A stretch of 64,000 nt of DNA from Mobula hypostoma (Eukaryota). Below the pieces are notes generated by a model that worked only from the letters and a program-made list of their open reading frames with translations, did not search any database and had not been told where the DNA came from. The position numbers and the translations under genes were made by a program. Below are positions 8,371 to 61,859 of this stretch, piece after piece. Every line of letters starts with the position of its first letter. Position 1 is the first letter of the stretch. Location: positions 94,304,001-94,368,000 of the forward strand of contig NC_086107.1 in the NCBI RefSeq assembly GCF_963921235.1, given 5' to 3'.

Positions 8371-8548
8371 CTCTAAGCCAGGTGAATGCAAGCCAAAGAG
8401 CTGGTGCATGCAGGAAGGGCTCAGCTGCTTAGACCATTGGGAGGGAAAAGCAATTTGTAGAAGAGGGACAGGCTGCATTTTGACAGGATCCTTGTGCGAA
8501 GATTTGCTCATGCTATTCAGGATTTAAACTAGACTGGCAAAAGGTGTG

Positions 8549-8750
8549 AGCAACACACAAAATTCTGGAGGAACTCAGCAGGCCAGGCAGCATCTATGGA
8601 AGAGAGTACAGTCAACTTTTCAGGCTGGGGAACTTCAGCAGGTCTGGAGTAAAACAGATGAGGAGTCAGAGTTAGAAGGTGGGGGGAGGGGAGGAAGAAA
8701 CAGGTGAGAGGTGAAATGTCTCCTCCCCTCCTCCCAGTTTCACTTATCAC
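8549..8750 (-). mobile_element. Left arm of a Penelope-derived inverted-repeat element
   Basis: Reverse complement of about 13835-13990, sharing diagnostic variants (aagagagtacagtcaac, cttcagcagg). Confidence 0.75.
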
Positions 8751-8756
8751 ATTGTG

Positions 8757-9197
8757 TTACATAAGAACATAAGAAATAGGAGGAGTAGGCCATCCGGCCC
8801 ACCAAGTCTGCCCCGCCATTTAATAAGATCATGGCTGATCTGTCCGTAAACTCAGCTCTATCTACCTGCCTTTTCCCCATAACCTATAATTCCCTTACTA
8901 TGTAAAAATCTATCTATCTTAAATATATTTAGTGAGGAAGCCTCAACTGTTTCCCTGAGCAGAGAATTCCACAGATTCACCACTCTCTGGGAAAAACAGT
9001 TTCTCCTCATCTCCATCCTAAATCTTCTCCCTTGAATGCAATGTCCCCTAGCTCTAGTCTCACCTACCAATGGAAACAACTTTCCTACTTCTATCTTATC
9101 TATCCCTTTCAAAATTTGGTATGTTTCTATAAGATCCCCTCTCATTCTTCTGAACTCCAGAGACTACAGTCCCAGGTGGCTCAATCTCTCCTCATAG
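8757..9197 (-). mobile_element. Outer CR1 LINE, 3' part
   Basis: MRGDLIETY...FSQRVVNLWNSL C-terminus and acataaga-type tail; continues from the segment at 12198. Confidence 0.88.
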
Positions 9198-13815: not shown

Positions 13816-14021
13816 AAAGAGTTAGAAGGTGGGGTTCCTTCCTCCCCTCCCCCCACCTTCTAACTCTGACTCCCCGTCTATTTTTCTCCAGTCCTGCTGA
13901 AGGGCCTCGGCCTGAAATGTTGACTGTACTCTCTTCTATAGATGCTGCCTGGCCTGCTTAGTTCCTCCAGCATTTTGTGTGTGTTGCCTGGGTGTCCAGC
14001 ATCTGCAGATTTTCTCTTGTT
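13816..14021 (+). mobile_element. Right arm of Penelope-derived inverted-repeat element, degenerate hammerhead (CTGCTGA...GAAATGTT)
   Basis: agtcctgctgaagggcctcggcctgaaatgttgact followed by the gatgctgcc...gttcctccagc tail. Confidence 0.75.
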
Positions 14022-26097: not shown

Positions 26098-29000
26098 AGA
26101 CCACACGACATAGGAGCAGAATTAGAACATCGAGTCTGGTCCACCACTCCATCGTGGCTGATCCATCATTCCTCTCAACCCCAATCTCCTACTTTCTCCC
26201 CATTATCTTTGACACCCTGATTAATCAAGAATCCATCAACCTTTGCCTTCAATACACCGAATGACTTGGCCAACACAACCATCTGTGGCAATGAATTCCA
26301 CAGATTCACCACCCTCTGCCTAAAGAAATGTTTCTTCATCTGTTTTAATTAGACATCTCTCAATTCTGAGGTCTCTGGTACTAGACTCCCGCACTATAGG
26401 AAACATCCTCTCCACATCGTTGGGAGTTGAGTGGGATCCGTGATCAGCCATGATGGAATGGCAGAGCAGACTCAATGAGTTTAATGGCCTAATTCTGCTC
26501 CTATGTCTTATGGTCTTATCCACTCTATCCAGATCTTTCAATATTCGATAGGTTTCAATGAGATCCCCCCATCAATTCTTCTAAACTTTAGCGAGTACAG
26601 GCACATAGCCATCAAAAACTCCTCATATGTTAATTCTTTCATTCCTGGGATCATTATCATAAACCTCCTCTGGAGAATCTCCAATGCTAGCACATCTTTT
26701 CTCAGACAAGGGGCCCAAAGCTGCTCATGATATTCCAAGAAGACTTCGACCGGTGCCTTACAAAGCCTCAGCATTACATTCTCGCTTTTGTGTTCTAGTC
26801 CTCTTGAAATGAATGCTAACATAGCATTTGCGTTCCTTACCACCTAGTTAACCTGGAAGTTAAGCTTTAGTGAACCCTGCACAAAGACTCCCAAGTCATT
26901 TGTGCCTCTGACTTTTGAATGTTCTCCCTGTATAGAAAATAGTCCTCATCTTTATTCTTTCTACCAAAGTGTATGACTGTACACTTCATACTATATTCCG
27001 TCTGCCACTTCTTTGTCCATTCTCCCAAATCTATTTAAGTCCTTCTGCCGACACCTTGCTTCCTCAACACCACCCACCCTTCCACCTATCTATGCATCGG
27101 CTGCAAATTTGGCCACAAAGCCATCAATTCCTTCATCCAAATCATTGTCATACAACTTGAAAAGAAGCGGTCCCAGCACCAACCTCTGGAACACACCACT
27201 AGTCACCAGTAGCCAACCAGAAAAATGCCTCCTACTAGTCAGCCAATCTTCTATCCATGCTAGTACCTTTCCTGTAATACCACGAGCACTGATTTTGATA
27301 AGCGACCTCATCTGCGGCACCTTGTCAAAAGGCTTCTGAAAATCCAAATAAACAACATCCACTGGCTCTCCTTGGTCCATTCTGCTTGTTACTTCCTTGA
27401 AGAAATCCAACAGATACGAGAGGCAAGACTTCACTTTGAAGAAACCATGCTGACTTCAGCTTATTTCATCATGTGCCTCCAAGTACTCTGAAACATCATC
27501 CTTAATAATGAACTCCAACAGCTTTCCAAGCACTGAGCCTGTAATTTCAAGTCTTCTGTGTCCCTCCCTGATTGAAGAGTAGACTGGCATTTGGAATTTT
27601 CCAGTCGTCAGGAACCATTCCAAAATCTAGTAATCCTGGAAAGGTCATTACTAGTGCCCTCACAATTTCTTCAGCTACCTCTTTCAGAACCCTGGAACAT
27701 AGTCCATCTTGTCTAGGTGACTTATCTACCTTCAAGCTTTTCAGTTTCTCAAGTACTTTCTCTTTAGTAATAGCAATGACACTCACTTCTGGCATTCTGC
27801 TAGAATCTTCAACAGTGAAGACTGACACAAAATACTTCTCAAGTTCGTCTGTCATTTCTTTGTTTCCACATTACTACTTCTCGCACATCATTTTCCAGCA
27901 GTCCAAAACCCATTCTCCTTTGTTTTACTCTTTATATATCCGGGGGGAAAAAAATTAGGTATCCTTTTTGTTACTGTTGGCTAGCTTACATTTATATTTC
28001 ATCCTTTTTCTCCTTATAGCTTTTTTTTTAATTGCCTTGTGATTTTTAAAAGCTTTCCAATTCTCTAATATCCCACTAATTTTTGCTGTATTATAAGCCC
28101 TCTCTTTTGCTTTATGCAGTCTTTGACCTCCATTGCAGGCCCCAGTTGCCTCATCCTCCCTTTAGAATACTTCGTCTTCGGGATATATCTATCCTGCCTC
28201 TTCTGAATTGCCCACAGAACTCCAGTCATTGCTGTTCTGCTGTCATCACTGACAGTGACCTTTTCTAATCAACTTTGGCCGGCTCCCCTTGCATGCTCCT
28301 GTAATTCCCTTTACTCCACTGGAAGACTGATACATCTGACTTTATCCTCTCTCTCTCTCTCAAACTGCAGGATGAATTCTACCATATTAGGATCACAGTC
28401 TCCTAAGGGTTCCTTTACCTTCAGCTCCTTAATCAAATCTGCTTCATTACACAACACCCAATCCAGAACTGCTGCAAGCTACTCTAAAAAGCTATCTCGT
28501 ATGCATTCTACCAATTCCTTCTCCAGATCCAGCACCATCTAGATTTTCCCAATCACCCTGCATATTGAAATCCCCCTTGATTATCACAGCATTGCCCTTT
28601 TTTACATGCCTTTGCCATCTCCCATTGTAATTTGTAGCCCACATCCTGCCTGTTCGCAGACCTTTATATAACTCTCATCAGGGTCTATTTATCACTGCAG
28701 TTTCTTAACTCTACCCAGAAAGATTCTACATCTTCTAATCCTATGCCATGTCCTTCTAAGGAGTTGATTTGATTTTTTAAACCAACAAAGCCAGACCACG
28801 CCTCTACCTACCTGCCTGTCCTCCTTTCCAATGTGTATCTTTGAATGTTAAACTCTCAGCTATGATCTTCTTTCAGCCATGATTCAGTGATGCCCACAAC
28901 AACATACCTATCAATCTTTAATTGCGCTACAAGATCTATCTTATTCTGTATACCGAGTGCATTCTAAAACCTCCAGTCCTGTATTCATCACACTTTTTGA

Positions 29001-35975: not shown

Positions 35976-38900
35976 ATGTTTCTTTATTATAATTTATAGT
36001 ATGCTTTATATAGTCTACTGAAGTGCTGCTGCAAAACATTTCACGTGCAAGTCAGTGATAATAAGCCTGATTCTGATTCTCAAGCATTTACCACAACAAA
36101 AGGAGATCTAGAGAGGCAAACTTTAAACTTAAGTAAACTTGCTAAAAGAAGAAAAAAGCCAAAAAGTAAGAAATGAAAGTGTGTGAATTTTTGCCTTTAT
36201 GGTTGTGAAATGTCTTAGAAAATCACCCTGACTCTGTAGAAACGACTCTCAATATCAATTGAGCTGGCGGTTCAAGGCTATATGTCCCTATAGAACAGCG
36301 ACCAGTACAGCATAGTACAGGCCCTTCAGCCCACCATGTTGTGTCAACTTTTAACTGATGGATATCAATCTAATCCTTCACTCCCACATTGCCCACAAGT
36401 TTTCTTTCATCTATGTGCCCATCTAAGATTCTCTTAAATATCGCTAACGTAACTGCCTTTAACACTATCCCTGGAAGTGAAAATGACCTGAAAATTATGC
36501 CCTCTCATATTAGCCATTTCCGCCCTGAGAAAAAGTCTCTGGCTGTCCACTCAATCTATGTCTCTTATCATCTTGTATATTTCTATCAAGTCACCTCTCA
36601 TCCTCCTTCGCTCCAAAGAGAAAACCCCCAGCTTGCTCAATCCTGGAGGGGCAAGGCTTGCAGGGCCTGATGACTGACCTCCTCTGCTGTTTTCTTGTTT
36701 TGGGATGGGTGATCTGGTGTCAACTCTTTACAAATAGTAACAAGGAACTGGCTACCAGAAACGGTAAAGAGGCACATTACAGAGCAGCTGTGCCAAAGTG
36801 CTTTACCAAACTGAAGGGCCTTTTACCATAATCTACACCTCTATATCCCCATCACACACCTTTATTCAAAATGGTTGTTGACCTATCTAGTATGATAGTG
36901 TAGTGGGTAGTGCTTGTAGCTCTCACTCTCAGCTTCTAGCACTGGCTAGCAGTTTTGCGAAAAAGAGAGTTGAATGTGCAAGTCTCTCCCTGCCAGTTCA
37001 TAGTTTCTCCAACAGCAAGCCTCATGTAGTGCCTCCTCACTGGTGGCATGTAGAAACTGAACTCCTTTCGGACTCGAGCTGAACTACAGAGGATGGGGGG
37101 GGAGAAGGTCTGGCCCCTGCACACATAGTACACTGGTGTGTGGACACAACCTGGTGCTTGTGATCCAGCTCCCCAGCAATGGGTAAATAGCCCCACTGCC
37201 TTGTCAGCAGCCTCAGGAGAGACGAAGGCTACAGGAATAAATCCAGACAGAAAATCCTGAGTGGAGACCCAAAGGTAGCTGGACATCACTGAACATCCTT
37301 CCGGAAGCTCCTGCAGCCAAGCTGGTGCTTCACAAGCTTTCCTTTTCCACTGGTGAAGCCGAGAGAGAGATCTTGGCTACTGGGCATCTCAAGGTCTCCA
37401 TACCTTCCACACAGGCTTGTGATGATGTTGATGATCACCCACTGTCCTTCGAAACAGATGGATGCTAACCAACCCACACCTTTATTCATGTTCCTGTACA
37501 CCAGAGGTTCCCTCAGTTAATGGCACAGGTCCATGACATAAAAAAAAAGGAGTTTACACTAATCTGCTGCAGATGAAGGGTCTCAACCCTAAACACTGAC
37601 TCTCACTTCCCTCCACAAATGCTGCCGCACCTGCCGAGTTCTTCCACCAGTATTATTTCCGGCTCCTTTTCCTAGCTCACATCAAAAGCACATGGGTCAG
37701 CTAGAAAACATTTGCTCCACACTATAACATATGTTCCCTTGTTCTGAACAGCCTCCCCCTCTTTGCAACTTTGAAATACACCTGCTTTCTCAATTGGAGA
37801 CAAAGGAGACTGCAAATGCTGGAATCTGGAGCAACACACAAGATGCTGGAGGAACTCAGTGGGTCAGGCAGCGTCTCTGGATGAAAATGGGCAAGTTTGG
37901 TCGACAGTCTTGGTCAAGGCAGAAGGATAGAGGGGAGATAGCCAATGTAAAGAGGTGGAGGAAAGGGGTGGAGCAAGATGGGTGGGTCCAGGTGAGAGAG
38001 GTAATAGGCAGATGGAGGAGAGAGGAGAGTGGGAATGATATCAGAAGCTGGGAGGTGATAGGTGGAAGTGACAAAGGTATGAAGATGATGGAATCTGATA
38101 GGAGAAGGGCAAAACATGGAATAAAGGGAGGCAGGAAGGGGAACCAGTGGAAGGAGTTAGTGTGTAATGGGCAGGTGAAGAAAGTTGAGGGTTGGAAGGA
38201 GACATGGTGATTGGTCTTGGGGGGGGGGGGCAGACAAATCAGCAGAGTAAAGGACAGAGTAAACTAAAACAGAGGGGATAACTTCACACCCCCAATACTG
38301 AACTGATTCACCAGCCTAGGACTCACGTTCAAGGACTCTATAACTCATGTTCTTAATGTTATTTGTTACTTATTTAATATTTTTTTGTTCTTTTTGTATA
38401 GTATTTGTACATTTTGTTGCCTTTTGCACATTACATTGGTTGCTTGTCCATCTTGTGTGTAGTTTTTCATTGCTTCTATTATGTTTCTCTGTATTTACTG
38501 TGAGTGCACACAAAAATTGAATCTCAGGACAGTATATGATGACATAAACATTATTTAATAAAGTTACTTTGAACTTTAAAGGTTTGTTGATCGAAAACAT
38601 CAACTCCATTTCCCCTGCATTGATGCAGCCTGACCTGCCAAACAGCCTCAGAATTTTCTGTTTTTATTTCACAATCACAATAACCAGCTTCTGTGAACAT
38701 TCATCCAGTTTTTAAAATGCTGTAGCAATGACCACCAATACCACAGATTTTTATCTCTCACAGTAGTTTGAAAGATACCTTATCAAAAATATTCTGAAAG
38801 TCTAAGTCCATACAAACCTAGTAACACCCCCCGTAAAACCGTCTAAAAGCTGCATCACAACTATTCTGATCATCAAATCCTCTGCCCTGCTGATCACTAA

Positions 38901-41291
38901 AAATCTTCCTAAAGGTCCCTAACTGGAACTCAAAATTATACTGCTTGGTGATAATAAATACAAAGTTATCTTGACACTTGCAATTATTGTGTCAATAACA
39001 TAGATCACTCTTATAACTGAGTACCTTCTACAGAGCAGACTTGTACAAGGATCTGTCGTGTTACCATTCTCTAATCGTCTTTCCTTACAGTACCTGATAT
39101 CGAAACCAGAATCAGGTTTACTGACACTGACACGTGCTGTGAAATTTGTTTTCGTTTGCAACAGAAATATAATGCAATACATAAAAAATAGTAGTACTAA
39201 GTTACAATGAGGAATAAACAATAAATAGTGTAAAAAGAGAGTAAATAAGCAGCACATAAACGGAAGGATCCTGATGAAGGGTTTTGGCCCTAAATGTCAA
39301 CTGTTCACTCTTCTGACCTGCCGAGATTATTTTGTGTGTGTTGCTCTGGATTTCTAGAATCTCTTGTGTTTGTGTTCATGGACTATTCAGAAATCTGATG
39401 GCGGAGGGGAAGAAACCTGAACTGTTGAGTGTGGATCTTCAGGCGCCTGCACCTCACCACCTCCCCCCACCCCCCCCCCCGATGGTAGTAACAAGAAGGC
39501 ATGTCCTGGATGGTGAAGGTCCTCCATAATGGATGCTGTCCTCTTAAGGAATCTTTGGAAGATTCCGTGGTAGACAATTCCATAGTAACATTTTAACCAG
39601 GCCTGACTGTAGATCACCCCTCCTCAAACACAAGAAAATAGGTGCAGGCATGAGTCATCACGCTCTGCTCGTCCATCCCATCAATTAACAGGATCATGGC
39701 CAATCTATGGTGGCATCATCACTCTTCTGTGCCATTATTCCTAACCCCCTCCTCCCCAAATCCCTGATCTTTCAATATTCATCCACCTCCACTTGTAATA
39801 TTTCTAATGATCAAGCTTCCTTCATGGAATTCAAGAGATCCACCACCTCCTGGGAGGAGAAATTCCTCTGCACCTCAGTTTTAAATGACCAGCCCTTTAT
39901 CTTGTACCCAAATCCTCTTCTTCAAGACTCTCTCACTGGCAAAAACTCCACAAAGCCCTCTGTATATCTAAACTTTGAATAAGGTTACTTCAATTCTTCA
40001 AAACTCCAAGGAATATAGCTCAAGTTACTTGATTTCTTTTGGTAAGACAACCTTTTATCTTGGGAACTAGCCTGGTAGATCTCCTCTATGCTGCCTCCAA
40101 CATTACTACAGCTGTCCCTGGGTTACAAAAGGGCTCCATTCTTGAGAACCATTGTAACCCAGGTTTAGAAAGTTAAAAATGAACAATTAAATGTGTAGGT
40201 ATGGATCATGCACTGCTTTAACAGAAGAGCAAACAGGCACGAGAAGAGCAGCCACTTGACCTGCTGAGTTCCCTGAGTGAACAAATCACCCCCATACAGA
40301 CCTCTGAACAACCGGCACAGCAGCTCAAACCACTAATTCCTGCCGAAAATATCACCACCTTCTATGGCAACACACAGCTGCAGGGTCAGACTCTGACCAC
40401 ACGAGCTAACTCCAAATCATTTGGTTCACCTCACACTCACTTGTTAGAAAGTTAGGGAAGCTTAACTCTTCAAAAATTCTTTTAGAATTCATTGGAAATT
40501 TTAGTAAAGTCAAAAATTTGCAAGTCAAGGCCCATTTTCTCATTCATACGTAGAAACATCCATAAATCAGACTCTTATTACCAATGAAGGACATATATAC
40601 CTTCTTTATGTAAAGAAACTACAACAGGATTCGATGTGGGACTTCACCAACACCTCATACAATTACAACAAAAACTCTGTTCCTAGACTCCAACCTTTTG
40701 CAATGAAGGGTAAATTGCCATTTACTCAGTACTTATTGGACCCGCCTGCTGGTTTGTTGTGATACATGCAGTACAGCACCCAATTCACTCTAACTTCACT
40801 CCCCATTGTCTCGCTTAATTTGTCTAGAGCTTAATTTGATTATCTGCCTTTTGAGTTCTCCTACCAAAGTGCACGATCTCAAACCGCCCCACATTAAACT
40901 CCATTTGCAGGAATTTTGCTCATTCACTTAACCTACATCCTGTGCAAAATTACATAATCCTTATTAACAAGCGCCCCCCCCCCACCCATTTTTTCCCCTC
41001 ATCGGCAATCTGGAAATCCTATACCGTTCAGAATCCGATTTAGTATCACCAGCATATTTACTGTTTTGTGGCAGAAGTACAGTGCAAGACAAAAGTTACT
41101 AAAGCTACAAAAAAAATTAATTAATAGTGCCAAAAGAGGAATAGTGAGGTGTTGTTCATTGACTATTCAGAAATCTGAAGGTCAAGGGGTACAAGCTGAT
41201 CCCAAAACTGTGGCCCTTCAGGCTCCTGTACCTCCACTCACAACACGCTGGAGGAACTCAGCAGGTCGGGCAGCATCCGTGGGAAAGATCG

Positions 41292-41326
41292 GTCGACGTT
41301 TCGGGCCGGAACCCTTCATCAGGACT
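41292..41326 (-). ncRNA. Minimal type I hammerhead ribozyme motif on the POLD1 sense strand
   Basis: Minus strand reads agtc-CTGATGA-agggttccggccc-GAAACGTC-gac. Confidence 0.75.
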
Positions 41327-41333
41327 GGCGAAG

Positions 41334-41368
41334 AGTCCTGACGAAGGGTTCCGGCCCGAAACGTCGAC
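41334..41368 (+). ncRNA. Minimal type I hammerhead ribozyme motif
   Basis: gtc-CTGACGA-a-ggg(ttccgg)ccc-GAAA-cg-TC-gac: intact core, short helices I and II, palindromic ACGT in place of helix III. Activity not shown. Confidence 0.75.
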
Positions 41369-41480
41369 CGATCTTTTCCACGGATGCTGCCCGACCTGCT
41401 GAGTTCCTCCAGCGTGCTGTGAGTGTTGCTTTGACCCCAGTATCTGCAGATTATTTTGTGTTTACAATCCTGTACCTCCA

Positions 41481-42030
41481 TCCTGATGGCAGAAATGAGG
41501 AGAGGGCATGTCCTAGATGGTGAGGGTCCTTAACAATGGATGCTGCCTTCCTGAGGCAGTGTCTCTTCAGGATGTCCTTGATGGTTGGAGGGTTGTGCCC
41601 GTGATGGAGCTGCTGGCTGAGTCTACAGCCTATTTTGATCCTGCCGATTGGAGCCTCCGGATTGGAGAGGTAGTGATGCAACCAGTCAAAATACTCTCCA
41701 CCGTACATCGACAGAAACTTGTCAGTCTTTGGTGATACACCAAATCTCTTCAAACTCCTGATGAATGAAGTAGAGCCACTAGCATGCCTTCTTCATGAGT
41801 GTATTACTGTGTTTTGGCCCAGGATAGACCGCCTGCCGGCTCCCAGGAACTTGAAACTTCTCACACTTTCCCATCACTGACCACCTCAATGAGGACTGGT
41901 ACATGTTCTCCTGATCTCCCCTTCCTGAAGCCCAGAATCAATTTCTTGGCCTTGCTGATGTTCAGTGCAAGGTTGTTGCTGTCACACTATTCAAGCAGCT
42001 AATCTATCTCGCTCCTGTACATCTCCTTCC
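41481..42030 (-). mobile_element. Rex1/Babar-type LINE 3' fragment (continues to about 41030 across the insert)
   Basis: CLRKAASIVKDPHHLGHALSSFLPSG resembles the Rex1 C-terminal DPSHPGH.LF..LPSG motif. Confidence 0.78.
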
Positions 42031-44052: not shown

Positions 44053-44634
44053 CGCCAGAGAAAGCAGGATCTCCCAGTGGCCACACATTTTAATTCCACA
44101 TCCCATTCCCATTCTGACATGTCTATCCACGGCCTCCTCTACTGTAAAGATGAAGCCACACTCAGGTTGGAGGAACAACACCTTATATTCCGTCTGGGTA
44201 GCCTCCAACCTGATGGCATGAACATCGACTTCTCTAACTTCTGCTAAGGCCCCACCTCCCCCTCGTACCCCATCTGTTACTTATTTTTATACACACATTC
44301 TTTCTCTCACTCTCCTTTTTCTCCCTCTGACCCTCTGAATATACCCCTTGCCCATCCTCTGGGTCCCCCCCCCGTCTTTCTTCCCGGACCTCCTGTCCCA
44401 TGATCCTCTCGTATCCCTTTTGCCTATCACCTGTCCTGCTCTTGGCTCCATCCCTCCCCCTCCTGTCTTCTCCTATCATTTTGGATCTCCCCCTCCCCCT
44501 CCAACTTTCAAATCCCTTACTCACTCTTCCTTCAGTTAGTCCTGACGAAGGGTCTCAGCCTGAAACGTCGACTGCACCTCTTCCTAGTGATGCTGCCTGG
44601 CCTGCTGCGTTCACCAGCAACTTTTATGTGTGTT
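44053..44634 (+). mobile_element. 5'-truncated Penelope-like element (GIY-YIG C-terminus + 3' region with hammerhead), 14-bp TSD
   Basis: TSD ACAGATATGCCTTC at 44039-44052 and 44635-44648; reads QDLPVATHFNSTSHSHSDMSIHGLLYCKDEATLRLEEQHLIFRLGSLQPDGMNIDF. Confidence 0.92.
44538..44573 (+). ncRNA. Minimal hammerhead ribozyme motif
   Basis: agtc-CTGACGA-agg(gtctcag)cct-GAAACGTC-gact. Confidence 0.75.
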
Positions 44635-46199
44635 ACAGATATGCCTTCTTTACTACCATATCAACTTGTGCAGCAACTACGAGGGACCCCGAGATCCCTC
44701 TGTTACTCCACACCAAATCCTCCATCTAACCTTGTACTCTGCCTTCAAGTTCCACCTCACAAAGTACCCCTGTATATTTCAAGATAGAAAGAGTAATCTG
44801 AGATGTTCAGAGGGTGGTCAAATATACCACTGATGTAGAACATCTTATCCTGTTCAACACAATTTTTGCTCAACTTAATTGCAACCTCATTGATCCCCTC
44901 CCTCCATGAAAATTTTGCAAGTCATTGGAAAACAGCTGCCTTCTCCCTACTTACATAAACATATTCTCAGTATTTTTTACTTATCTGTATTTGTACAAAT
45001 TACCTTTTACACACTTTGTTCTACTGTGAATGTCCACAAGAAAATGAATCTCAGGGAAGCACATGGTGACATATCAGTACTTCGCTAATAAATTTACTTT
45101 AAACTTTGAAAACAAACTTTAATGCTCACATACATACTGCCAGAGAATCACAAAGATTAAAGGTTGGAAGGGTGCACAGAGTTAGGACCAACTACATACA
45201 AGAGCAACCTAACTAGCGCCACTCTCCCAATTTCCATAGTTCAGCCAAATAATTCTAAACATTTATTCAGTGCCTACTTGAACGATATGATTACATCCAC
45301 TTTATCACTCCCTCCAAAGTGTTTTCTAGATTCAAACCACATTCTTTGTTAGAAAGTTTCCAAATGATAGACTTAGTCCCTTAGCTGTTGCGATTTTAAA
45401 CAGCTCCGTTCGATTACCTCTTAAGCACACACTCTTCCGGGAAGAAGTCCATTAACTTCTTCATTCTATTCATAGTCTGTTCTCCTATGACTCAATCAAG
45501 TAAATCTCTTCTGCCCCTCCATAAAGTCCTTAACATTTTTCCTGAAGTGCAGCATCCAGAATTGATCATAATATTCTAGTTGTGGCCAAACCAACAATTT
45601 GTAAAGAGTCATTGTAAATTCATTTACAGAATGCTGGAGATTAGGTCCTGATGAAGCATCTCAGCACGAACATCGACTATTTATTCCTCTTCATAGATGC
45701 TGTCTTGATTCCTCCAGCATTGTCAGTGTGACTACGCATTTCAAGGATTTGCAGAATCTTGTGTTTATAACTTCAGTTCCTCACATTCAATAACTATGTT
45801 TATAAAGCTCAGTATCCTATACAGCTTTACAATTACTTTTTCTAACCTGCCCAACACACACAGAAAGCCGGAGGAACTCATCAAGTCAAGCAGCATCTAT
45901 GGAGGGAAATCTCATGCTGGCTAAGGTTAAATCAGTTTTAATTTTATACCCTAAGCAGATGTCAGTTACTCCCCACAATAGTAGAGGTAGACAGAACACT
46001 GATTAACTTGTGCCAAGTACCTGGTTAGTCACCCATTAAGCCTGCACTAGATTCTGCTGGTAGATGGGCTCTTGCAGCCAGTTGCAGGTGTGGAAGGAAG
46101 TTGGTGGCCCATTTGGGTACATTTTCAAGTTAGGTGAGAAGAAGAAGGGGAATTAAATAGGGTGGGTGGGGGAGTAATTAAGGAAGTTTCTGTGCTTGA

Positions 46200-46400
46200 G
46201 CAACACATACAAAAAGCTGGAGGAATTCAGCAAGTCAGGCTGCATTAATAGAGTGGAATAAACAGTCGCTGTTTTGGGCCAAGATCCTTCACATTGTCAA
46301 CTGTTTATTCCCCTTCAAAGATGCTGCTTGACCTGCTGAGCTCCTCCAGCATTTTGTGTGTGTTGCACAAGGTTCCCAACACGTGCAGAATCTCGTGTTT
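46200..46400. repeat. Older Penelope-derived inverted repeat with deleted centre
   Basis: gctggaggaattcagcaagtcagg and cttgacctgctgagctcctccagc arms. Confidence 0.65.
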
Positions 46401-49400
46401 ATGGTTTTCAAGCTGCCCAACCAATTTCATGAATTTACATGTAGTTTCCCACAGCTCCCTGCAATCTTGAACCACATTAAGCACCATGTGCAATTAATTT
46501 ATTCTTGTCACATGTACCATAATACCATGGAACATGCTGTTTTGTATGCAATCCTTTCCAGACCAGTTCATCACCAACTAGGAAATACAATAAATATATT
46601 AGATTAATTTTTCCTTCAGGGATAAGCAATAAAACTTATATACATCTAATCTAAATTTATCTAATACATATTGCTTCTGCTAGTTCTTCCTGTGAGAATG
46701 ACAAACACGCATTTCTTGGTGCTAATTTTTACCTGCCTGATGTTCATCACTTCCACCAATTTAAATCCTCCATCTTTCTCACAGTTTCTCACATGGTTTC
46801 ATGTTTGGCGTCGACTGCAAATTTGGAAACTGCACAATAAATCATTAATATACTTTAAGAAAAACAGTGGTCCCTATAACTAGCTCCTAGGGACACCGCT
46901 ATGTGAATCAAGTTCAGATTTATTATCACCGACTTTGGCAATGTGAAATTTGTTGTTTTGCAGCAGCAGTGCAAAGACAAACCCACTATAAATTACAAAA
47001 CAAATAAATAGTGCAAAAATAAGGAATAATGGAGGCTCTGCACTTGGTGAATCAAGCAATCTCTGTTTATCTTGTTGGTAAGGGAGAGTCTGTTGCTGAC
47101 TCTCGAGTTGGAAAACTCGGGGAAAAAAAGCGACACGACAGACTTTAACATCGCAAATCAGCGAGTTGCTTTGTTATGTCTCCACTTTCGCTGTGAAGTG
47201 GGGGGGACTTCTCTTTCTTTTTATCAGGGGGGGAGAGAGAGAGAGAGAGAGAGAGTGCGAGCGAGCCTGTGGTATGTCGAATTGTCAGGAGAATGATTAG
47301 CTTTTGTTGTATGGCTGACCATGGTCTTTCTTGGGTGCTTTGCTGTTACTTGCTTGGTGGGTGGAGGGTGCTGATACTTCTTTTGCGATAGTGGGTGGGG
47401 GTGGGGGAAGGTCATTGCTTTGCTGCTGCTTTTGTATGGGAAGGGGGAGTGGAGGGGCTTTGGGGTTCGAACGTTTTGACTGTCATTCGGTCTTTGGGGC
47501 ACTTCTGCTTTCGTGGATGCCTGCAAAGAACAAGAATTTCAGTATGTATATTGCATACATTTCTCTGATATTAAATGGAACGACTGAATTATTGATTCAT
47601 GGACCATTCAAAAATCTGATGGCAAAGAGGAAGGCATCATTTCTGAATTGTTGAGTTTGGGGTTTCAAGCTGTGAGATACATCTCCCTGATGGTAGTAAC
47701 AAGAAGCAGAAATGTCATGGAAGGCAAGGGTCCTTGGTGAAGTACGCCAACATCTTGTTGCACAACCTCGTGGGGAAGGTTGTGCTTGTGATGGAGTTGG
47801 CTGAGTCTATGATCCTCTGCAGCCACATGTAATCATGTGATGCAACCAGTCAGATTGCTCTCACTGCACATCTATAGATATTAAGAGCAGTCTTTAGCGA
47901 TATACCAAATCTCAGTTCCATGCTGTGTGTGTTGGGCCCAGGATAAACCCGCTGAGATGCTGTCCTCCAGGAACTTGAAGTTGCTCACCCTTTCCACTGT
48001 TGACCCCTCAAATGAAGAATGGTGTGTGTTCTCCCCTCCCAACTCTCCACAATCAATTCTTTGGTCTTGCTGATGCCAAGTGTGAGGTTGTTGTGAAACC
48101 AATCATCCAGTCAATCTATCTCAGAGCTGTATGCCTCCTCCTCACCATCTGAAATTCTACCAACAAGGGTGTCACTGGCAAATTTATAGATAGCTGTGCT
48201 GAGCTAAGTAGTCAATAGTGTGAAGAGCGTAGAGCAGATTAAGCCTGCATCCTAGAGGTGTACCTGTTTTGATCATCAGTGAGTTGTTGTTACTGATCCA
48301 TTCTCCCAATACCCTTCAATGTAAAAGAAACCATTCAATGCTCCTGATAAGACACAAGAGATTCTGTAGATGATAGAATACATGAACAACACACACAAAA
48401 TGCTGGAGGAACTCCTGGCTTCTCCCCACTTCCTTTCCAGTCCTTTTGAAAGGTCTTTGCCTGAAATGCCAACTGTCCATTTCCATCTATGGATGCTGCC
48501 TGACCTGCTGAGTTTCTCCAGTATTTTGTGTCAGTACTCTTGATACTTGCAGCTTAGCCTATGTTCAGCAACATGAACATGCTACAGAGGACGTGTACAG
48601 ATGTCAGGCTGGCAAGCACTGTGGATAAGGACCAGCGAGGGATGAAGGCTGGTGGCCCACTGGGTCAGCTAGTACCCCTAGGCTGGCTGGACCCGAGATC
48701 AGATTTCCATGCGAGCAGGAGGCACAAGAGCTGGTGACCTTCTAGGTACACCAGTTGGCGAGAGTAAAGTTCACATTCTGTCATCAGTGGACCCAGAGTT
48801 CAGGGTCCCATCATTGACTGGTCCAGAGATCAAAACCTGGAGTTCAGGGTCCTATCAACCAAACATCTCCGGGCTGATACCGAAGATCGAAGCTGAAGGT
48901 CAATTGGAATTCTGAAAGCTAATTGTTGAAGTCCTGGATCTATGAATCTGAAGTTCACAAGGGAAGTCAGAGGCCCTTTGTGCACATCCACTGCGCTGGA
49001 GGGCTTGGAGGCCCGCCCTGAGGTTGGAGAACTTTCTATCTGGGCGTGTGGGTGGCAGGGAGGAAAGGGGCTTCTTTGTTGCTGTTGTTTTGTTGCTTGT
49101 TGTGTTGTGTTGTTCTGCCAAGCACTGTGGCATGCTACATTGGCGCAGGAATGTGTGGTGACAATTGCGAGCTGCCCCCAGTACATCCCTGGGTGTGTTG
49201 CTTCCTTATGCAAACAATGTACTTCAATCTATGCTTCAATGTACTTACATGTGCTAAATAACCTGAACCTTCTAACTACACTATTTCACCATTTTTATTC
49301 CACAAGTCTCTTCTGTTATCTTACTTTTCTGGAAGTTTACATGCCCAAGCCACAAAAATCCTCTCCATTACATTGATAATAAATAATACCGCAGCCATTG

Positions 49401-49884: not shown

Positions 49885-51285
49885 TTTCAGTCTCTGAAGC
49901 TGACATGCAGGCTGCCTTCAGGAGGGTGAACCCATAGAAAGCATCCAGACTGCACCGTACTTGACCACGAAGTAAAGACCTGTACTTATCGGCTGGCTGG
50001 TGTGCTCATTGAGATCTTTAACCTCTCGCTTCAGCAGCGTGTGGTACCCACCTGCTTCAAACAGGCTTCAATTATTGCCAGTGCCCAAGAAAAGCACGGT
50101 GACCTGCCTCGATGACTATCGCCCAGTAACACTTACAGGTGATGAAACACATCGGCTCCTGCCTGAGAGACAACTTGGATCAGCTCCAATTTGCTTACCG
50201 AAGCAAAAGGTCCACAGCAAATGCCATCTCATTGGCTCTACACTCAACCCTGGAACATCTGGGCAGCAAAGATGCAGATATCAAGATGCTCTCTATTGAC
50301 TACAGCTCAGCATTCCATACCATCATCCCCTCACCACTAATCAATAGACTCCAAGACCTTGGCCTCAATACCTCCTTGTGCAATTGGATCCTGGATTTCC
50401 TCACTTGTAGACGCCAGTGAGTTCAGATTGGCAACATCTCCACAATTTCCATCAGCACAGGTGTACCACAAGGCTGTGTGATTAGCCCCCTGCTCTACTC
50501 ACTTTAGACTTATTACTGTGTGGCTACACACAGCTCCAATGCCATGTTCAAGTTTGCTGATGGACACCGTTGACCAGAACAAAGGTGGTGATGAATTAGC
50601 ATACAGGAGGGAAATTGAAGATCTGGCTGAGTGGTGCCACAACAACAAACTCTCACTCAGTGTCAGCAAGACCAAGGATGGATTATTGACTTCAGGAGGA
50701 GGAAACCAGAGGTCCATGAGCCAGCCCTCACCAGAGGATCAGGGGTGGAGAGGATAAGCAACTTTAAATTCCTAGGTGATACTATTTCAGAGGACCAGTC
50801 CTGGGCCCAGCACGCAAGCACAATTACGAAGAAAGCAGTACAGCACCTCTACTTCCTTAGGAGTTTGCGAGATTTGGCATGACATCTAAAATTCTGACAA
50901 ACATCTATGGATGTGCAGTGAAGAGTATATTGACTTGCTGCATCACCACCTGATACAGAAACACCAATGCCCTTGAATGGAAAATCCTACAAAAGGTAAT
51001 GGATACGGCGCAGTCCATCACTGGTAAAGCCCTCTCCAATATTGAGCACATCTACATGAACCGCTGTCGTCAGAAAGCAGTGTCCATCACCAAGGATCCC
51101 CACAACCCAGGACATGCTCTCTTCTCACTGCTGCTATCAGGAAGAAAGTACAACAGCCTCAGGACTCACACCAACAGGTTCAAGGAACAGATACTACCCC
51201 TCAACCATCAGGTGCTTGAACAAAAGGGGATAACTTCACTTGCCCCATCATTGAAATGTTCCCACAACCAATGGACTCATTTTTA
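49885..51285 (+). mobile_element. Rex1/Babar-type LINE RT fragment
   Basis: [34 protein letters not shown] and [10 protein letters not shown]; frameshifted. Confidence 0.88.
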
Positions 51286-53307: not shown

Positions 53308-53646
<339 letters not shown>

Positions 53647-54603: not shown

Positions 54604-54701
54604 CATGTCCTGACGAAGGGTCTCGGCCTGAAACGTCGACTGCGCCTCTTCCTATAGATGCTGCCTGGCCTGCTGCGTTCACCAGCAACTTTGATGTGTG
54701 T
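54604..54701 (+). mobile_element. 98-nt hammerhead-only Penelope-derived insert with 11-bp TSD
   Basis: TSD CCCTTCAGAAT at 54593-54603 and 54702-54712; gtc-CTGACGA-agggtctcggcct-GAAACGTC-gac at 54607-54640; near identical to 44539-44633. Confidence 0.9.
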
Positions 54702-56960: not shown

Positions 56961-57076
56961 TTTTGATGAAAGCTGGAGGATTGTCATGTTAACCATGGGC
57001 AGACTTGATTCAATTTTCTTTACATGGTTTCAAAATGTCCACTAATTAGGCATTTCTTCCCCTCTGTTGTACTCAC

Positions 57077-57190
57077 TTTTTCCTTGCAGACAGGAGGTTT
57101 TCCAGTATTTCTGGAAGCAGTCCTTTTCTCACTGATGCCTTGACAAACTGATCCCCTGTCGGAGTCTTAATGAACTGGTCCGAAGAAAAA
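57077..57190 (-). CDS. POLD1: POLD1 internal exon (equivalent to human exon 16)
   Basis: [37 protein letters not shown]. Pyrimidine tract plus caaag acceptor, gtgagt donor, 114 nt, in frame with both neighbours (junction codons AA|T and AA|G). Confidence 0.96.
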
Positions 57191-57384
57191 CTTTGAAGGA
57201 GAGAAAAGTGAAAGAGGAGAAAGAAAAACCACAACACATTCAAATAAATCTCCATTAAAGAAAAGCAAGCTTCAAACCTTTACTATTACTTCAGCATCAT
57301 ATTCTTACCACCACTTATGATTCTATGCCTCAGTAAATTTATTAGCTAGATCCCCCAATCCCAAACACTATGTAGTTCCCCAAT

Positions 57385-60300
57385 GGCTGAGTGTGTTCCG
57401 TACAAAAGCTGCAAGGCTGGACAACATACCTGGTCGGGTGCTGAGGAATTGTGCGGCCCAGCTAACAGAAGTCTTAATGGACACCTTTAACATCTCTTAG
57501 CAACAGTCCACTGTCCCTACAAGCTTCAAGGCAACCACTATCATTTCAGTGCCCCAACAAAGTGACAATAACCAGCATAAACAATAACTGCCCAGTTGTA
57601 CTGACCTCTACCATCATATGCAGTGCTTTGAGAAAGCATTCAGCCGCCACAACTATTTTTACATTTTACTGTCACATTTTCTAAATTTAAAATATATTGA
57701 AGTAGGGTTTTTTGAGCTTATCTGCAAACTTTGTGCATTGTTTTAAATCCAAAACCTGTCAACAATTTACTAAAAATTAAAAATGAAAATGTTGAGTTTG
57801 AAAAAGTATTCAGCCCCTTTGTACTTACTATGCTAACTTTCCTCAGGTGTATATTACCTTATCAACTCATCCAAATTTATTGATGTAGAAAATTGGAGGG
57901 TCACCTGAATGAATACTGCCCCCCCCTTCTCTAAGGTCCAACAGTTCAAACCACTATGAAGACAAAAGAGCATTCAAGGCAAGCCAGGGAAATTATAATA
58001 GAGGCATAAATCTGGGGAAGGGTACAAGACCATCTTAAAGACACTGAACGTACCTCACAGTTCAGTGCAATCCATCATGAAAAAGTAGAAAAATATGAAA
58101 CCACAGTCACACTGCTTAGATCAGGGTGCCCCCTCTAAACTTAGTCACCAGAGAAGAATGGCTCTTGTACGAGATACTATTATGACAGCAACAGTCACTC
58201 TAAGTGAGCTGCAGAAGTGAATGGCTGCAAATAAAGATGAAGTTCGTTGCTCCACAACCTCCAAGACATTGCACAGAAAGGGAATTTATGAAAGAGTAGC
58301 AAGGAAGAAGTCCTGCCTTAAATAAAAGCATATCCTTGCCTATAAAGACTTTGCAAAGCGTCACTTAGAAGATGCTGTAAAGTTGTGGAAGAAGGTTTTG
58401 TGGTCGGATAAGATTAAACTGGAACCTTTTGACCTCAACATTAGGTGGGATGTGTGGCATAAAATCTAATACTGCACGTCTACCAGGTAACACCTTCCCT
58501 ACGGGTCTGGAAATCAGATCAAGATTAATGGGAAGATGAATGCTGCTAAATACAGGGAGATCTTGGATTAAAACCTGCTAGCCTCTACCAGAAAGCTTAA
58601 ACTGGGAAGTTCATCTATCAGCAGGACAAGGACCCAAGGTTGCCAGAACAACCAAAGAGTGGCTTCAAATGAAGAAAATTGATGTCCTTGAGTGGCCCAG
58701 TCAGAGTCCCACCCTTAACCCGATCAAGCATCTCTGGCATGACCTCAAGATTGCTGTCTGCTGCCACTCCCCAGCAAACCTGTCATAGCTTGAGCAATTT
58801 TGCAATGAGGAATGGGCAAATCTTCCTCCATCACATCAGACAAAGCTAATAGAGACTTAACCAAAAAGACTACTGGCTGTGATCGCTGCGAGAGGTGATT
58901 CAACTAAGTACAGAGCAAAGGGGGATGACTACTTGTGAAATGCTAATATTTCAGTTTTTGGATATTTAGTTTTCCATGCTTTTTCGATTTTTCCTGGTTT
59001 CTTTTTTTTTTGGACTATACTGTGAAGAAAAGAGCATGTGATAAAAATTCTCAAGTCATATTAATCAAAATCCCTGGTTGTAATACTGATTCATATGAAC
59101 AAAGGGTTGGGGGCTGAATACTTCTACTAGACACTGTAGTGTTTTGAGTGGCTGGTAATAGATCGTAGAAAATCCCACCTTCCAGCCACATTATACTCTT
59201 TCTAGATCTCCTGCTGCTCAAACCGGTCCACCAATGATGCCATAGCCCAGAGACATTCTGCCCTGTCTCACCTAGAAAACAATGCCTGATACACCAGGTT
59301 GTTCATCAACTTAACATGATCATCCCTCTGAGGCTGGTGGGTGAGCTGAGTTCATAGGGACTTAACACCCTCTCTGTAGCTGGATCTTGGACGTCTTGAC
59401 AGAAAGACCCCACTCAGTCCGATTGGGAGCAGCATCTCAAGCTCCACCACTCTGAGCACTGGTGCCCCCTTCCCACCCCCACCCCCCCAGGGGCCTGCTG
59501 CTGTGCACACTGCTGACTCACGAGTGCACTCCCAGACTCAGCTCAAATCACATCAGGTTCGCTTACAATACATCCTCAACAGCAACAATGATGGGCCGAC
59601 AGAGAGGAGGTAGAGAGGCTTATCAAATGGTGCGAGAACGACGACCTGAATCTCAACATGGACAAGACAAGAGAGATGATTGTGGACTTTAGGTAGGCAC
59701 AAGTCAACCACTCTCCACTGCATATCAATGGCTCTGCCGTGGAGAGAATGAAGAGCAAAAAGTCCCTTGGTGTGCATATTAAGGATGATCTAACCTGGAT
59801 CACAACACCTCGTCATTAGTTATGAAGGCACAGCAGTGTCTGCACTTTGAGGAGATTAAAGTGTACAAGGCTCCCTGCCCCCAATCCAACAGCTTTCTAC
59901 ATGAGCACCATCAAGAAGTCCTGTCTGGTTGCATCATTGTGTGATATGGAAACTGTCAGGCAACAGACTGCAAAAGCCCTACAGAGGATAGTAAAAACAC
60001 TGAGGGAATTTCGGGGGTCTTCCTCCTCCCTATTTGTGACATTCACCAGGAGCATTGTATACAAAGGGCCCAAAGCATTGCTGAGGATCCCTACCATCCA
60101 TCGCACAATCTCTTTGACCCACTACCATCGAGAGGTACAAGAGCACCACGGCTAGGACTGCCAGACTGGGTAACAGCTTTTTCCCCTCAGGCTGAGACTA
60201 ATGAATACCCCGCCATTACCAAGGTCTCATCACCAGGACAGCAAGCTGTTCACCTGTGCTGCGCACTACATACACTTTGAATTATATTTTATTAACATTA

Positions 60301-61625: not shown

Positions 61626-61742
61626 TTGTATTTCTCCACAGCACCGGGCTTCAGTAGAGTGGTGTAACATAAGTTATGTGCCATCATTATGGATGGGTAC
61701 AGGGAGGAAAAATCCAGAGTAGCTATGGGAACATCATAATAA
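61626..61742 (-). CDS. POLD1: DNA polymerase delta catalytic subunit, internal exon (equivalent to human exon 15, motif A)
   Basis: Not in the ORF track; translated by hand: [38 protein letters not shown]. Acceptor ttctacag, donor gtgag, 117 nt, phase 2-2. Confidence 0.96.
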
Positions 61743-61859
61743 CTGTAGAAGAAAAGCAAAATTAAACAAAACTTAATCTAGTTTTAAATTTCAATATTTT
61801 AAAGAAACACCAAATTAAGGACTTCAGGGGAGAGATATGTCGTTTTGCATTCCATTCCT

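Follow-up and report, generated by a model that had tools for sequence, protein, structure and literature searches.

A fold-back insert with two minimal hammerhead motifs in a probable POLD1 intron of Mobula hypostoma: likely a truncated Penelope-like element insertion

The window, i.e. the whole stretch of DNA analysed here, comprises 64,000 nucleotides from Mobula hypostoma and contains exons of POLD1 on its minus strand (Table 1). Compared with three proteins from carpet sharks and the whale shark, the identity of these exons is 92-100%. Downstream POLD1 exons were not detected in positions 1-53427 with five POLD1 proteins (tblastn, E<=1e-3), nor below 53428 with two proteins from residue 561 onward (tblastn, E<=50). 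The insert described in this study lies 12.2 kb downstream of the last visible exon in the direction of transcription. Judged from the upstream exons, it is probably located inside a POLD1 intron that is longer than 53 kb. The surrounding stretch downstream of the POLD1 exons is filled with repeats, and CR1-like LINEs occupy positions 8760-11854, where they adjoin a copy of the repeat family to which the arms of the insert belong. The mixture of CR1-like LINEs and fragments of Penelope-like elements (PLEs) observed here matches the intron expansion of the whale shark as described in the available text of bioRxiv 10.1101/443036.

The insert consists of 231 nt (41237-41467) between two target-site duplications (TSDs) with the 13-bp sequence TCCTGTACCTCCA, which match in 13 of 13 positions. 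It is dominated by an inverted repeat, whose arms (41235-41326 and 41334-41425) are 92 nt long each, 97% complementary, and separated by the 7-nt spacer GGCGAAG. The three mismatches between the arms (41318/41342, 41283/41377, and 41243/41417) are all transitions. The TSD, the arms with their mismatches, and the loop had all been part of the original prediction and were confirmed by repeat analysis. A 42-nt tail is present on the right side only; the insert is therefore asymmetric and does not form a symmetric palindrome. The final CA of the left TSD doubles as the first two paired nucleotides of the left arm and may constitute a microhomology at the junction. No second duplication was found around either arm. 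Because one TSD brackets both arms and the tail, the insert is the result of a single insertion event, and its description as a non-coding unit is supported.

In nhmmer searches, the left arm matches the family model on the minus strand (41334-41229, model positions 17-125). This is also the POLD1 strand, and the outer end of the arm lies close to the short 3' terminus of the family. The right arm and a part of the tail match on the plus strand (41334-41457, model positions 25-152). In other copies, a pyrimidine-rich stretch precedes AGTCC (TTTCTCC at 13867, CCTTTCC at 48416), and the minus-strand spacer CTTCGCC resembles these stretches. The spacer thus probably represents seven further nucleotides of the minus-sense copy. 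The ratio of observed to expected CpG is 0.98 for the insert (18 CpG) versus 0.30 for the whole window and 0-0.67 for the other 15 family hits. The high CpG retention noted previously is borne out by these values; the deduced recent insertion is to be understood in relative terms only, because a contig with a second organism label has the same left junction.

Table 1. Positions of the insert and its parts, of the POLD1 exons, and of related repeat copies in the window.
Feature	Position	Strand	Basis or remark
Left TSD copy, TCCTGTACCTCCA	41224..41236	.	100% identical to right copy
Left arm, family copy, sense on minus strand, no tail	41237..41326	-	inverted-repeat pairing; nhmmer
Left-arm hammerhead core CUGAUGA...GAAACGUC	41322-41295	-	predicted cut between 41295 and 41294
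Spacer, CTTCGCC on minus strand	41327..41333	-	alignment with other copies
Right arm, family copy, sense on plus strand	41334..41425	+	inverted-repeat pairing; nhmmer
Right-arm hammerhead core CUGACGA...GAAACGUC	41338-41365	+	predicted cut between 41365 and 41366
3' extension (tail), 42 nt, right copy only	41426..41467	+	homologous to the family's optional extension
Right TSD copy	41468..41480	.	13-bp direct repeat
Last visible POLD1 exon, donor GTGAGT	53428..53577	-	shark POLD1 residues about 679-728
Upstream POLD1 exons	57076-57192, 61634-61744	-	protein-to-DNA matches
Older fold-back, same family	46195..46371	.	arms 72 nt, 81% complementary, 33 nt apart
Longer family copy with inverted 5' piece	13818..14012	+	hammerhead core decayed
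Head-to-head pair (fold-back 48393-48531)	48355..48559	.	hammerhead core decayed

Minimal hammerhead motifs were searched for with the pattern CTGANGA-N(10-18)-GAAASSTH, and the expectation was derived from 100 shuffles. The window contains four matches, compared to 0.03 expected. Two of them are the arms of the insert; the other two, at 44542 and 54610, are older copies with an intact core. The pattern thus matches on both strands of the insert, in agreement with the predicted intact core in each arm, and the minus-strand cleavage site had been positioned correctly. Each strand of the insert carries one sense motif only. In both arms, the boxes C3-U4-G5-A6-N7-G8-A9 and G12-A13-A14 are present and position 17 is occupied by C, a non-G residue. 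CUGAYGA is followed by an extra A and then by GGGU-UCCG-GCCC, which corresponds to an additional residue separating position 9 from position 10.1. The 10.1-11.1 pair is G-C in both focal arms and G-U in the older copies 44542 and 54610. In the segment GAA-ACGU-C, the self-complementary ACGU at 15.1-16.1 replaces helix III, and there is no loop 3.

Minimal hammerheads of PLEs are characterized by CUGANGA and GAAA boxes, an extra residue that separates position 9 from position 10.1, a G10.1-C11.1 pair, and C17; they lack helix III and loop 3, their palindromic positions 15.2-16.2 permit dimer formation, helix I comprises 4-5 bp, and self-cleavage is weak and takes place in the dimer (PMC4209133). 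For the minimal hammerheads of metazoan PLEs, Lunse et al. 2017 is cited in the available text of PMC6765202. The boxes, the extra A, the ACGU, and C17 support the previous classification of the motifs as Penelope-type minimal type I hammerheads. Helix I of the focal copies is shorter than the range given above and has three contiguous pairs (GUC/GAC) followed by an A.C mismatch; in older family copies it has 5 bp (CAGUC/GACUG). In both focal copies, the break lies 4-11 nt before the CUGA box, and the short helix I is due to this truncation together with a T-to-C difference at GACCG. None of the Rfam hammerhead models (types I, II, III, HH9, HH10) matched at the gathering score in the whole window or at E<=10 in 41150-41550, as is to be expected when helix III is absent. 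MIR918 and other Rfam miRNA models gave matches below their cut-offs; these are caused by the long hairpin and were rejected as evidence for a miRNA. Judged from the family consensus, in which a stop codon follows about 21 codons on, the ATG within the CUGAUGA box is not the start of a long ORF.

The predicted fold of the minus-strand RNA has an energy of -208.4 kcal/mol, compared to -85.8 +/- 4.9 kcal/mol for 200 shuffles (z -25.2). The long hairpin would outcompete the ribozyme fold by about 200 kcal/mol, and a transcript of either strand would form a double-stranded hairpin of ~92 bp that prevents folding of the hammerhead. The proposed lock of the sense ribozyme by the hairpin is consistent with the predicted fold, and the hairpin is, as proposed earlier, a candidate substrate of ADAR or Dicer. 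The same lock had been offered as the reason why the insert is tolerated in the gene, for which no such explanation is needed, because single minimal hammerheads do not cleave in vitro (PMC4209133) and PLE fragments abound in the introns of the whale shark, where these fragments and CR1-like LINEs are reported to be expanded (available text of bioRxiv 10.1101/443036). The product of the insertion is non-autonomous and most likely inert.

The family represented by the arms is very abundant; it yields 17 nhmmer hits at 14 loci of the window, all of which are short fragments. The 5' starts of the hits are scattered over model positions 2-95 and the 3' ends are clustered, with seven hits ending at 121-131, nine at 140-153, and one at 108. 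There are consequently two classes of 3' ends, which are either short or extended by about 35-42 nt; nine of the 17 hits reach the tail columns. At the focal locus, the outer end of the left arm (model position 125) belongs to the short class and that of the right arm (152) to the tailed class. Neither poly(A) nor a microsatellite terminates the family copies. An inverted piece is found at the 5' end in four of the 14 loci, and every junction is different. At the older fold-back 46195-46371, the antisense copy is short-ended and the sense copy is tailed, and the junction is unlike that of the insert. The longer copy carries a perfect inverted piece of 17 nt (13818-13834 versus 13851-13867) with a 16-nt spacer. 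The head-to-head pair is made up of a sense copy of 144 nt and, directly next to it, a terminal piece of 60 nt in antisense orientation, tail included. Convergent family pairs are located at 45641-45925 and 37571-37944.

Not one of the 15 further family hits in the window has the junction of the focal insert. Tandem hammerhead units were not found between 36 and 56 kb, where Tandem Repeats Finder reports three small arrays with periods of 13-20 nt, and self-comparison of 37.3-39.6 kb revealed no internal repeats. These findings do not agree with the proposed mobile palindrome or retrozyme-like family: the three other fold-backs differ from the insert in junction and arm length, and the outer ends of its arms are the two ordinary 3' termini of the family. 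A junction without a second copy had itself been named in the original prediction as the sign of a one-off by-product of insertion, and within the 64 kb the observations point to such an integration by-product. Metagenome scans with family patterns gave 0 matches. The number of contigs placed on the stretch was 28,513 (X1), 39,040 (X5), 19,102 (X9), and 4,724 (X17). In run X1, the unique flank has a summed contig depth of 3-7, compared to 10^5-10^6 over the arms. The letter differences seen over the arms are variants that belong to other copies of the family and are not readable as editing.

The architecture of the family resembles that of PLEs. It combines 5' truncation with a fixed 3' region, adjacent inverted and 5'-truncated copies, and an optional tail that is present at one end only at the focal locus. 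The PLE signatures given in the available text of PMC8557442 and PMC11167929 are heavy 5' truncation, a neighbouring copy that is inverted and itself 5'-truncated, and a tail of 30-40 bp at one end, and the optional tail with its two 3' ends is said to be unique to PLEs in the accessible part of the latter. As described in the same excerpts (PMC8557442, PMC11167929), reverse transcription of an anole PLE starts in vitro at two adjacent internal sites, and the segment between them corresponds to the optional 30-40-bp tail. The assignment of the family to the PLEs is deduced from these structural signatures, because no ORF encoding reverse transcriptase (RT) and GIY-YIG endonuclease, which PLEs carry as a single ORF between pseudo-LTRs with hammerheads, is linked to a family copy in the window. 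A Pfam scan of 444 ORFs gave no GIY-YIG match; the domains seen were LINE-type RT and endonuclease, a DDE_3 fragment, and DNA_pol_B only. The scan covered 146 minus-strand ORFs of at least 62 aa, 148 minus-strand ORFs of 30-61 aa in 28.2-46.2 kb, and, on the plus strand, 150 of the 172 ORFs of at least 62 aa. Taken together, we consider it likely that one PLE-mediated insertion event has generated a fold-back, non-autonomous fragment, and not a mobile palindrome in its own right.

The insert could also be the 3' tail of a non-PLE retroposon, namely of a SINE or a LINE partner, that carries a hammerhead-like motif; the fold-back would then be a twin-priming or snap-back artefact of LINE-type TPRT. 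This interpretation is unlikely. It is in line with the lack of a GIY-YIG or PLE-type ORF in the window, with the abundance of CR1-like LINEs beside family copies, and with the 5' inversions known from LINE-1 twin priming. However, the family copy 8544-8757 is separate from the neighbouring LINE, and the motif contains the PLE-specific extra nucleotide and the palindromic positions 15.2-16.2. Moreover, the optional tail of ~35-42 nt and the two classes of 3' ends, in place of poly(A) or a microsatellite, constitute a PLE signature according to the available text of PMC11167929. An interpretation of the family as the tail of the CR1-like LINE next to it was rejected, as this LINE ends in its own microsatellite-like repeat at ~8760, before the family copy. 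It is very improbable that the palindrome itself belongs to a mobile non-coding family of the retrozyme or MITE type and was copied together with its fold-back junction. Such a family would explain the clean TSD, the young age indicated by the CpG content, and the intact cores on both strands, and non-autonomous PLE derivatives have been reported from vertebrates including one chondrichthyan (available text of bioRxiv 10.64898/2026.07.22.740005). It is contradicted by the unshared junction and the differing fold-backs elsewhere in the window, by the asymmetric ends, whose one-sided tail is unlike terminal inverted repeats, and by the lack of tandem units, since retrozymes consist of direct repeats in tandem and have hammerheads of the canonical type I. 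The unit also seems to be devoid of a recognisable promoter.

The density of the family (14 loci in 64 kb) and the occurrence of neighbouring insertions such as the two convergent pairs might suggest two independent head-to-head insertions, or a later inverted duplication by an error in replication or repair. Yet a single 13-bp TSD brackets everything, and no second one surrounds either arm; in addition, the arms share 97% identity, are members of one CpG-rich subfamily, and have their breaks no more than 7 nt apart. Both of these origins are highly improbable. That the palindrome is an artefact of assembly or a long-read fold-back is hardly credible. None of the short-read contigs listed spans the palindrome from end to end, and the contigs are interrupted at the repeat. 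An artefact would, however, not create a 13-bp TSD, a one-sided tail, and three transitions between the arms, and the left junction is spanned by a contig with a different organism label (X5 record 18, 193 nt), which extends from 41065 to 41260. Among the 15 of 529 joints listed, there was no precise empty-site joint.

For the preferred reading, a single PLE-mediated event, the following origin can be proposed. An extremely 5'-truncated insertion by the PLE machinery would yield the 231-nt insert, one part of which would be the last 134 nt of the 3' region of the element RNA, with the minimal hammerhead, the ~60 nt that follow it, and the optional tail of 42 nt. The other part would be an inverted copy of 92-99 nt of the same 3' region, and the palindrome would arise during integration. 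Either both cut target strands might prime reverse transcription, one from the short and one from the long RT start site, or the first cDNA might fold back and the intermediate be resolved at the boundary of arm and tail. Neither of these sub-mechanisms fits cleanly. The distance between the inner ends of the copies is no more than 7 nt; such near-coincidence is predicted by a fold-back and not by independent priming on two strands. Conversely, a simple fold-back or snap-back cannot leave the right copy tailed and the left copy untailed. The fold-backs of the family could even be natural fossils of a PLE integration intermediate, because both at the focal locus and at 46195-46371 the short RT start marks the end of the antisense arm and the tailed start that of the sense arm. 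We regard this idea as rather doubtful. The pattern of ends may fit priming of both strands from two start sites, or resolution of a hairpin by the endonuclease at the boundary of arm and tail. So far, such an integration intermediate has been observed for a single lizard element, and only in vitro. On the same doubtful view, dsRNA pathways (siRNA or ADAR) directed against PLE 3' regions could be fed by such intronic hairpins if thousands of them were transcribed.

The two hammerhead motifs are real, and the overall structure is ordinary: it is one more dead fragment among the very many PLE pieces with hammerheads in the genome, and its palindromic form, tail, and TSD are textbook features of PLE insertions. 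Its modest value is that of a clean and young example whose two outer ends are each assignable to one of the alternative 3' termini, so that such fold-backs, surveyed across the genome, could test in vivo the priming of both strands from two start sites, a model proposed from in vitro work. For annotation, it follows that perfect long hairpins in shark introns with sub-threshold Rfam miRNA scores are PLE by-products.

LINE-1 twin priming and hairpin-primed snap-back cDNA produce a 5' inversion within one TSD and a fold-back with a short loop, and the insert is similar in these respects. Twin priming of LINE-1 inverts a segment upstream of the direct part, whereas in the insert the same segment is inverted. 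Truncated PLE insertions in which an inverted, 5'-truncated copy lies alongside and a tail of 30-40 bp is present on one side were reportedly described by Evgen'ev and Arkhipova in 2005. The insert shares with truncated PLE insertions the 5' truncation, the head-to-head partner, the tail at one end, the TSD, and a hammerhead near the 3' terminus, as far as these are documented in the available text of PMC8557442 and PMC11167929. Its hammerhead cleavage site is located ~60 nt before the short and ~102 nt before the long end. The geometry of the anole PLE is similar in the accessible description, with the cut at 26 bp and RT initiation at 111-118 bp into the ORF. Unlike known truncated PLE insertions, the focal copy measures 231 nt in total and has no ORF remnant, and both of its copies break at almost the same position, which results in a near-perfect hairpin.

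Non-LTR retrozymes of animals are said to have been described by Cervera and de la Pena in 2020. Like these, the insert is non-coding and bears hammerheads; according to the available text of bioRxiv 10.64898/2026.07.22.740005, retrozymes are thought to be derived from PLE pLTRs and to depend on PLE proteins, and they are reported there to be excluded from introns. In contrast to the single inverted pair with minimal hammerheads found here, they consist of tandem direct repeats with canonical type I hammerheads and form circular RNAs. The insert also differs from a MITE, as its 42-nt right tail has no left partner and the other copies are single-orientation fragments. The closest agreement of the motifs is with the metazoan minimal hammerheads (PMC4209133), with which they share the boxes, the unpaired nucleotide before stem II, G10.1-C11.1, ACGU, and C17. 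Helix II has 4 bp and a tetraloop here, compared to 6-8 bp in Schistosoma and Drosophila virilis (PMC4209133), and helix I is shorter as well. As in the window, minimal hammerheads are reported to occur in pairs on opposite strands, at distances of 100-700 bp, and also as numerous solitary motifs, which are attributed to truncated PLEs (PMC4209133).

The 231-nt insert at 41237–41467 is enclosed by a perfect 13-bp direct repeat (TCCTGTACCTCCA, at 41224–41236 and 41468–41480). Its two inverted arms (41235–41326 and 41334–41425) comprise 92 nt each, are 97% complementary and flank the 7-nt spacer GGCGAAG, exactly as claimed in the original prediction. The arms differ from each other at three positions, exclusively by transitions, one of which destroys a CpG within the CUGAYGA box. 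The insert is asymmetric, because the right arm is followed by 42 nt (41426–41467) that have no counterpart on the left. In the profile of the repeat family to which the arms belong, the left arm ends at model position 125 (a short terminus) and the right arm at 152 (a terminus with the optional 3' extension, or tail). The minus-strand RNA of the insert folds with -208.4 kcal/mol, compared to -85.8 ± 4.9 kcal/mol for shuffled sequences (z -25); the predicted duplex has about 92 bp and would be a candidate for editing or dicing, as originally proposed.

The pattern of minimal hammerheads, CTGANGA-N(10-18)-GAAASSTH, is matched four times in the window (0.03 matches expected from shuffles). Two of these matches are the focal arms, each of which carries the core proposed for it; the predicted cut on the minus strand, between 41295 and 41294, is also correctly positioned. 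Helix I consists of only three contiguous pairs, because both focal copies end 4–11 nt upstream of the CUGA box. No hammerhead family was matched in Rfam, at gathering score and at E<=10; the matches to the long hairpin were miRNA models only, all sub-threshold. In most longer copies, a pyrimidine tract plus CAG (e.g. TTTTTCTCCAG/TCC) lies directly upstream of helix I and resembles a 3' splice site. For Penelope of Drosophila virilis, an intron has been reported whose end coincides with the 5' border of helix I (PMC4209133). The acceptor-like site of the focal locus is in POLD1 sense, but buried within the hairpin.

The family profile was built from the copies in the window and searched against the 64 kb, which yielded 17 matches at 14 loci. 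The 5' starts are dispersed (model positions 2–95). The 3' ends form two groups, at 121–131 (n=7) and 140–153 (n=9), which differ by the optional extension of about 35–42 nt; a single match ends at 108. Both catalytic boxes are fully covered in ten matches and intact in four; the other copies are decayed, largely at CpG sites. Four public sequencing runs contained 28,513, 39,040, 19,102 and 4,724 contigs matching the region. Summed contig depth, which does not equal copy number, was 10^5–10^6 over the arms and 3–7 on the unique flank in one run (X1). Nonetheless, these figures show great abundance of the family under at least three organism labels. Contig letter differences over the focal arms are variants of other copies rather than signs of editing. 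The copy at 8544–8757 adjoins two 3' ends of CR1-like LINEs, yet is separate from them. The stretch 8760–11854 (minus strand) holds a near-full-length CR1-like LINE, after which its 3' end recurs in a 5'-truncated copy (9190–8760). The DDE_3 fragment is DNA-transposon debris in an intron between POLD1 exons.

Coordinates of features in the window
Feature	Position	Strand	Remark
Intact catalytic boxes	both focal arms; 44542–44569; 54610–54637		
Pyrimidine tract + CAG	13876–13890; 48430–48441		
Pyrimidine tract + CAG	8644–8656; 41327–41336	minus	
Possible arm/tail 9-nt pairing	13935–13947 / 13997–14009; 41378–41386 / 41441–41449		approximate
Fold-back	46195–46266 / 46300–46371		arms 72 nt, 81% complementary, 33 nt apart
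Fold-back	13818–13834 / 13851–13867		17-nt perfect inverted piece, 16-nt spacer, 5' end of longer copy
Fold-back	48355–48414 / 48416–48559		60-nt antisense terminal piece abuts 144-nt sense copy
POLD1 exons	61744–61634; 57192–57076; 53577–53428	minus	
CR1-like LINE, Exo_endo_phos endonuclease ORF	11854–11312	minus	
CR1-like LINE, RT ORF	11325–9556	minus	590 aa
CR1-like LINE 3' end	~9195	minus	ATGTTCTT-type repeat
RT fragments	12722–13167; 27093–27455	minus	
RT fragment	50130–50417	plus	
DDE_3 transposase fragment	58582–58785	plus	E 6e-06, below Pfam cut-off

Fold-backs occur at four of the 14 loci, the focal one included, and every junction is distinct. The focal junction is absent from all 15 other family matches within the window. 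The palindrome had been proposed to represent a mobile family of its own; as far as the window shows, it corresponds instead to the insertion by-product that the original prediction named as the other outcome.

Two routes to the palindrome were considered, both compatible with the biology of Penelope-like elements (PLEs). Both cut target strands might prime, each from a different start site of reverse transcription (RT). Both outer ends would then be family 3' termini with a tail on only one; this route does not predict cDNA ends lying no more than 7 nt apart. Alternatively, the first cDNA might fold back on itself and the intermediate then be cut at the arm/tail boundary. The inner ends would nearly coincide because of this folding, and near-coincident inner ends are also found at 46195–46371, where the short end belongs to the antisense copy and the tail to its sense partner, and at 13818–13867. 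Fold-back of the cDNA also accounts for the spacer GGCGAAG, which read on the minus strand resembles the element's own upstream sequence. The one-sided tail, however, requires an additional resolution step. It is improbable that such fold-backs preserve, in vivo, an intermediate of PLE integration and are a source of double-stranded RNA from introns.

The POLD1 exons share 92–100% identity with three POLD1 proteins from sharks (residues ~602–728 of 1094–1131); their best PDB match is the catalytic subunit of human DNA polymerase delta (residues 666–719). The last exon is followed by a GTGAGT donor, and no further exon (residues from ~729) was detectable in the 53.4 kb of 1–53427, even at E<=50. 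Therefore, if the gene is intact, the insert would lie 12.2 kb into an intron of >53 kb. The missing exon points either to an intron of unusual length or to an incomplete or rearranged locus. For the whale shark, parts of a preprint (bioRxiv 10.1101/443036) describe long, repeat-filled introns and expanded CR1-like LINEs and PLEs.

A 193-nt contig with a second organism label (record 18 of run X5) spans 41065 through the left junction to 41260. The X5 flanks differ from the window by about 2.4–2.9% (seven letters and one gap in 294; eight in 277), and the focal arms differ by 3.3%. Both divergences suggest an insertion older than the split of the two lineages. The presumed recent origin holds in that the insert is the youngest family copy in the window, with a CpG observed/expected ratio of 0.98 (0.30 for the entire window, 0–0.67 for the remaining copies), but its age is not especially low. 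The target site is itself repetitive: the flanks 41170–41236 and 41466–41560 have a summed contig depth of 10^3–10^4, compared to 3–7 further out. The insert therefore landed within an older repeat. Positions 41529–41547 resemble the arm over 19 nt (GGATGCTGCC).

In POLD1 sense the antisense arm is transcribed first, so that the emerging sense motif would pair with it. The proposed lock of the ribozyme by the hairpin is real, as judged by the folding energy; it is superfluous for explaining why the insert is tolerated. The hammerhead fold of the isolated arm has only about -7 kcal/mol, and the minimum-energy fold (-10.4 kcal/mol) is a different one. With one sense motif per strand, no dimer can form in cis; in vitro, single minimal hammerheads showed no detectable cleavage and dimers were weakly active (PMC4209133). 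In a study on an anole PLE (PMC11167929), insertion did not require hammerhead cleavage. No function is needed to account for the insert. The original observation is confirmed and its interpretation partly supported.

Strong 5' truncation, hammerheads in pseudo-LTRs and a 30–40-bp tail, often at one end only, are described for PLEs in passages of Craig et al. 2021 (PMC8557442). The focal hammerhead shares the traits listed for PLE minimal hammerheads, including a G10.1-C11.1 pair and a palindromic 15.2-16.2 without loop 3 (Cervera & De la Pena 2014, PMC4209133). Opposite-strand pairs 100–700 bp apart are known, and most solitary motifs are attributed to truncated PLEs (same source). Given this match in features and hammerhead traits, the insert is probably the product of one PLE-mediated insertion, extremely 5'-truncated and with an inverted partner. 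A weak point is that no ORF with RT and GIY-YIG domains was found among 444 ORFs scanned with Pfam; two metagenome scans for longer copies of the family also yielded none. According to Frangieh et al. 2024 (PMC11167929), purified anole PLE protein begins RT at two adjacent sites inside the RNA; the stretch that separates these sites corresponds to the optional tail of genomic copies. The protein also cuts and extends both target strands. An arm stretch (TAGATGCTG or CGGATGCTG) may pair over 9 nt with a tail stretch (CAGCATCTG or CAGTATCTG). The pairing is complete (nine of nine) in the two tailed copies that are best kept, in part through G-U changes, and reaches 7/9, 7/9 and 5/9 in three older ones, too few sequences for a covariation test. 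This predicted stem would enclose the short 3' terminus and recalls the anole stem-loop at the RT start site. The predicted cut site of the focal hammerhead is 60 nt upstream of the short end and 102 nt upstream of the tailed one, compared to about 85–92 nt upstream of the RT start in the anole study.
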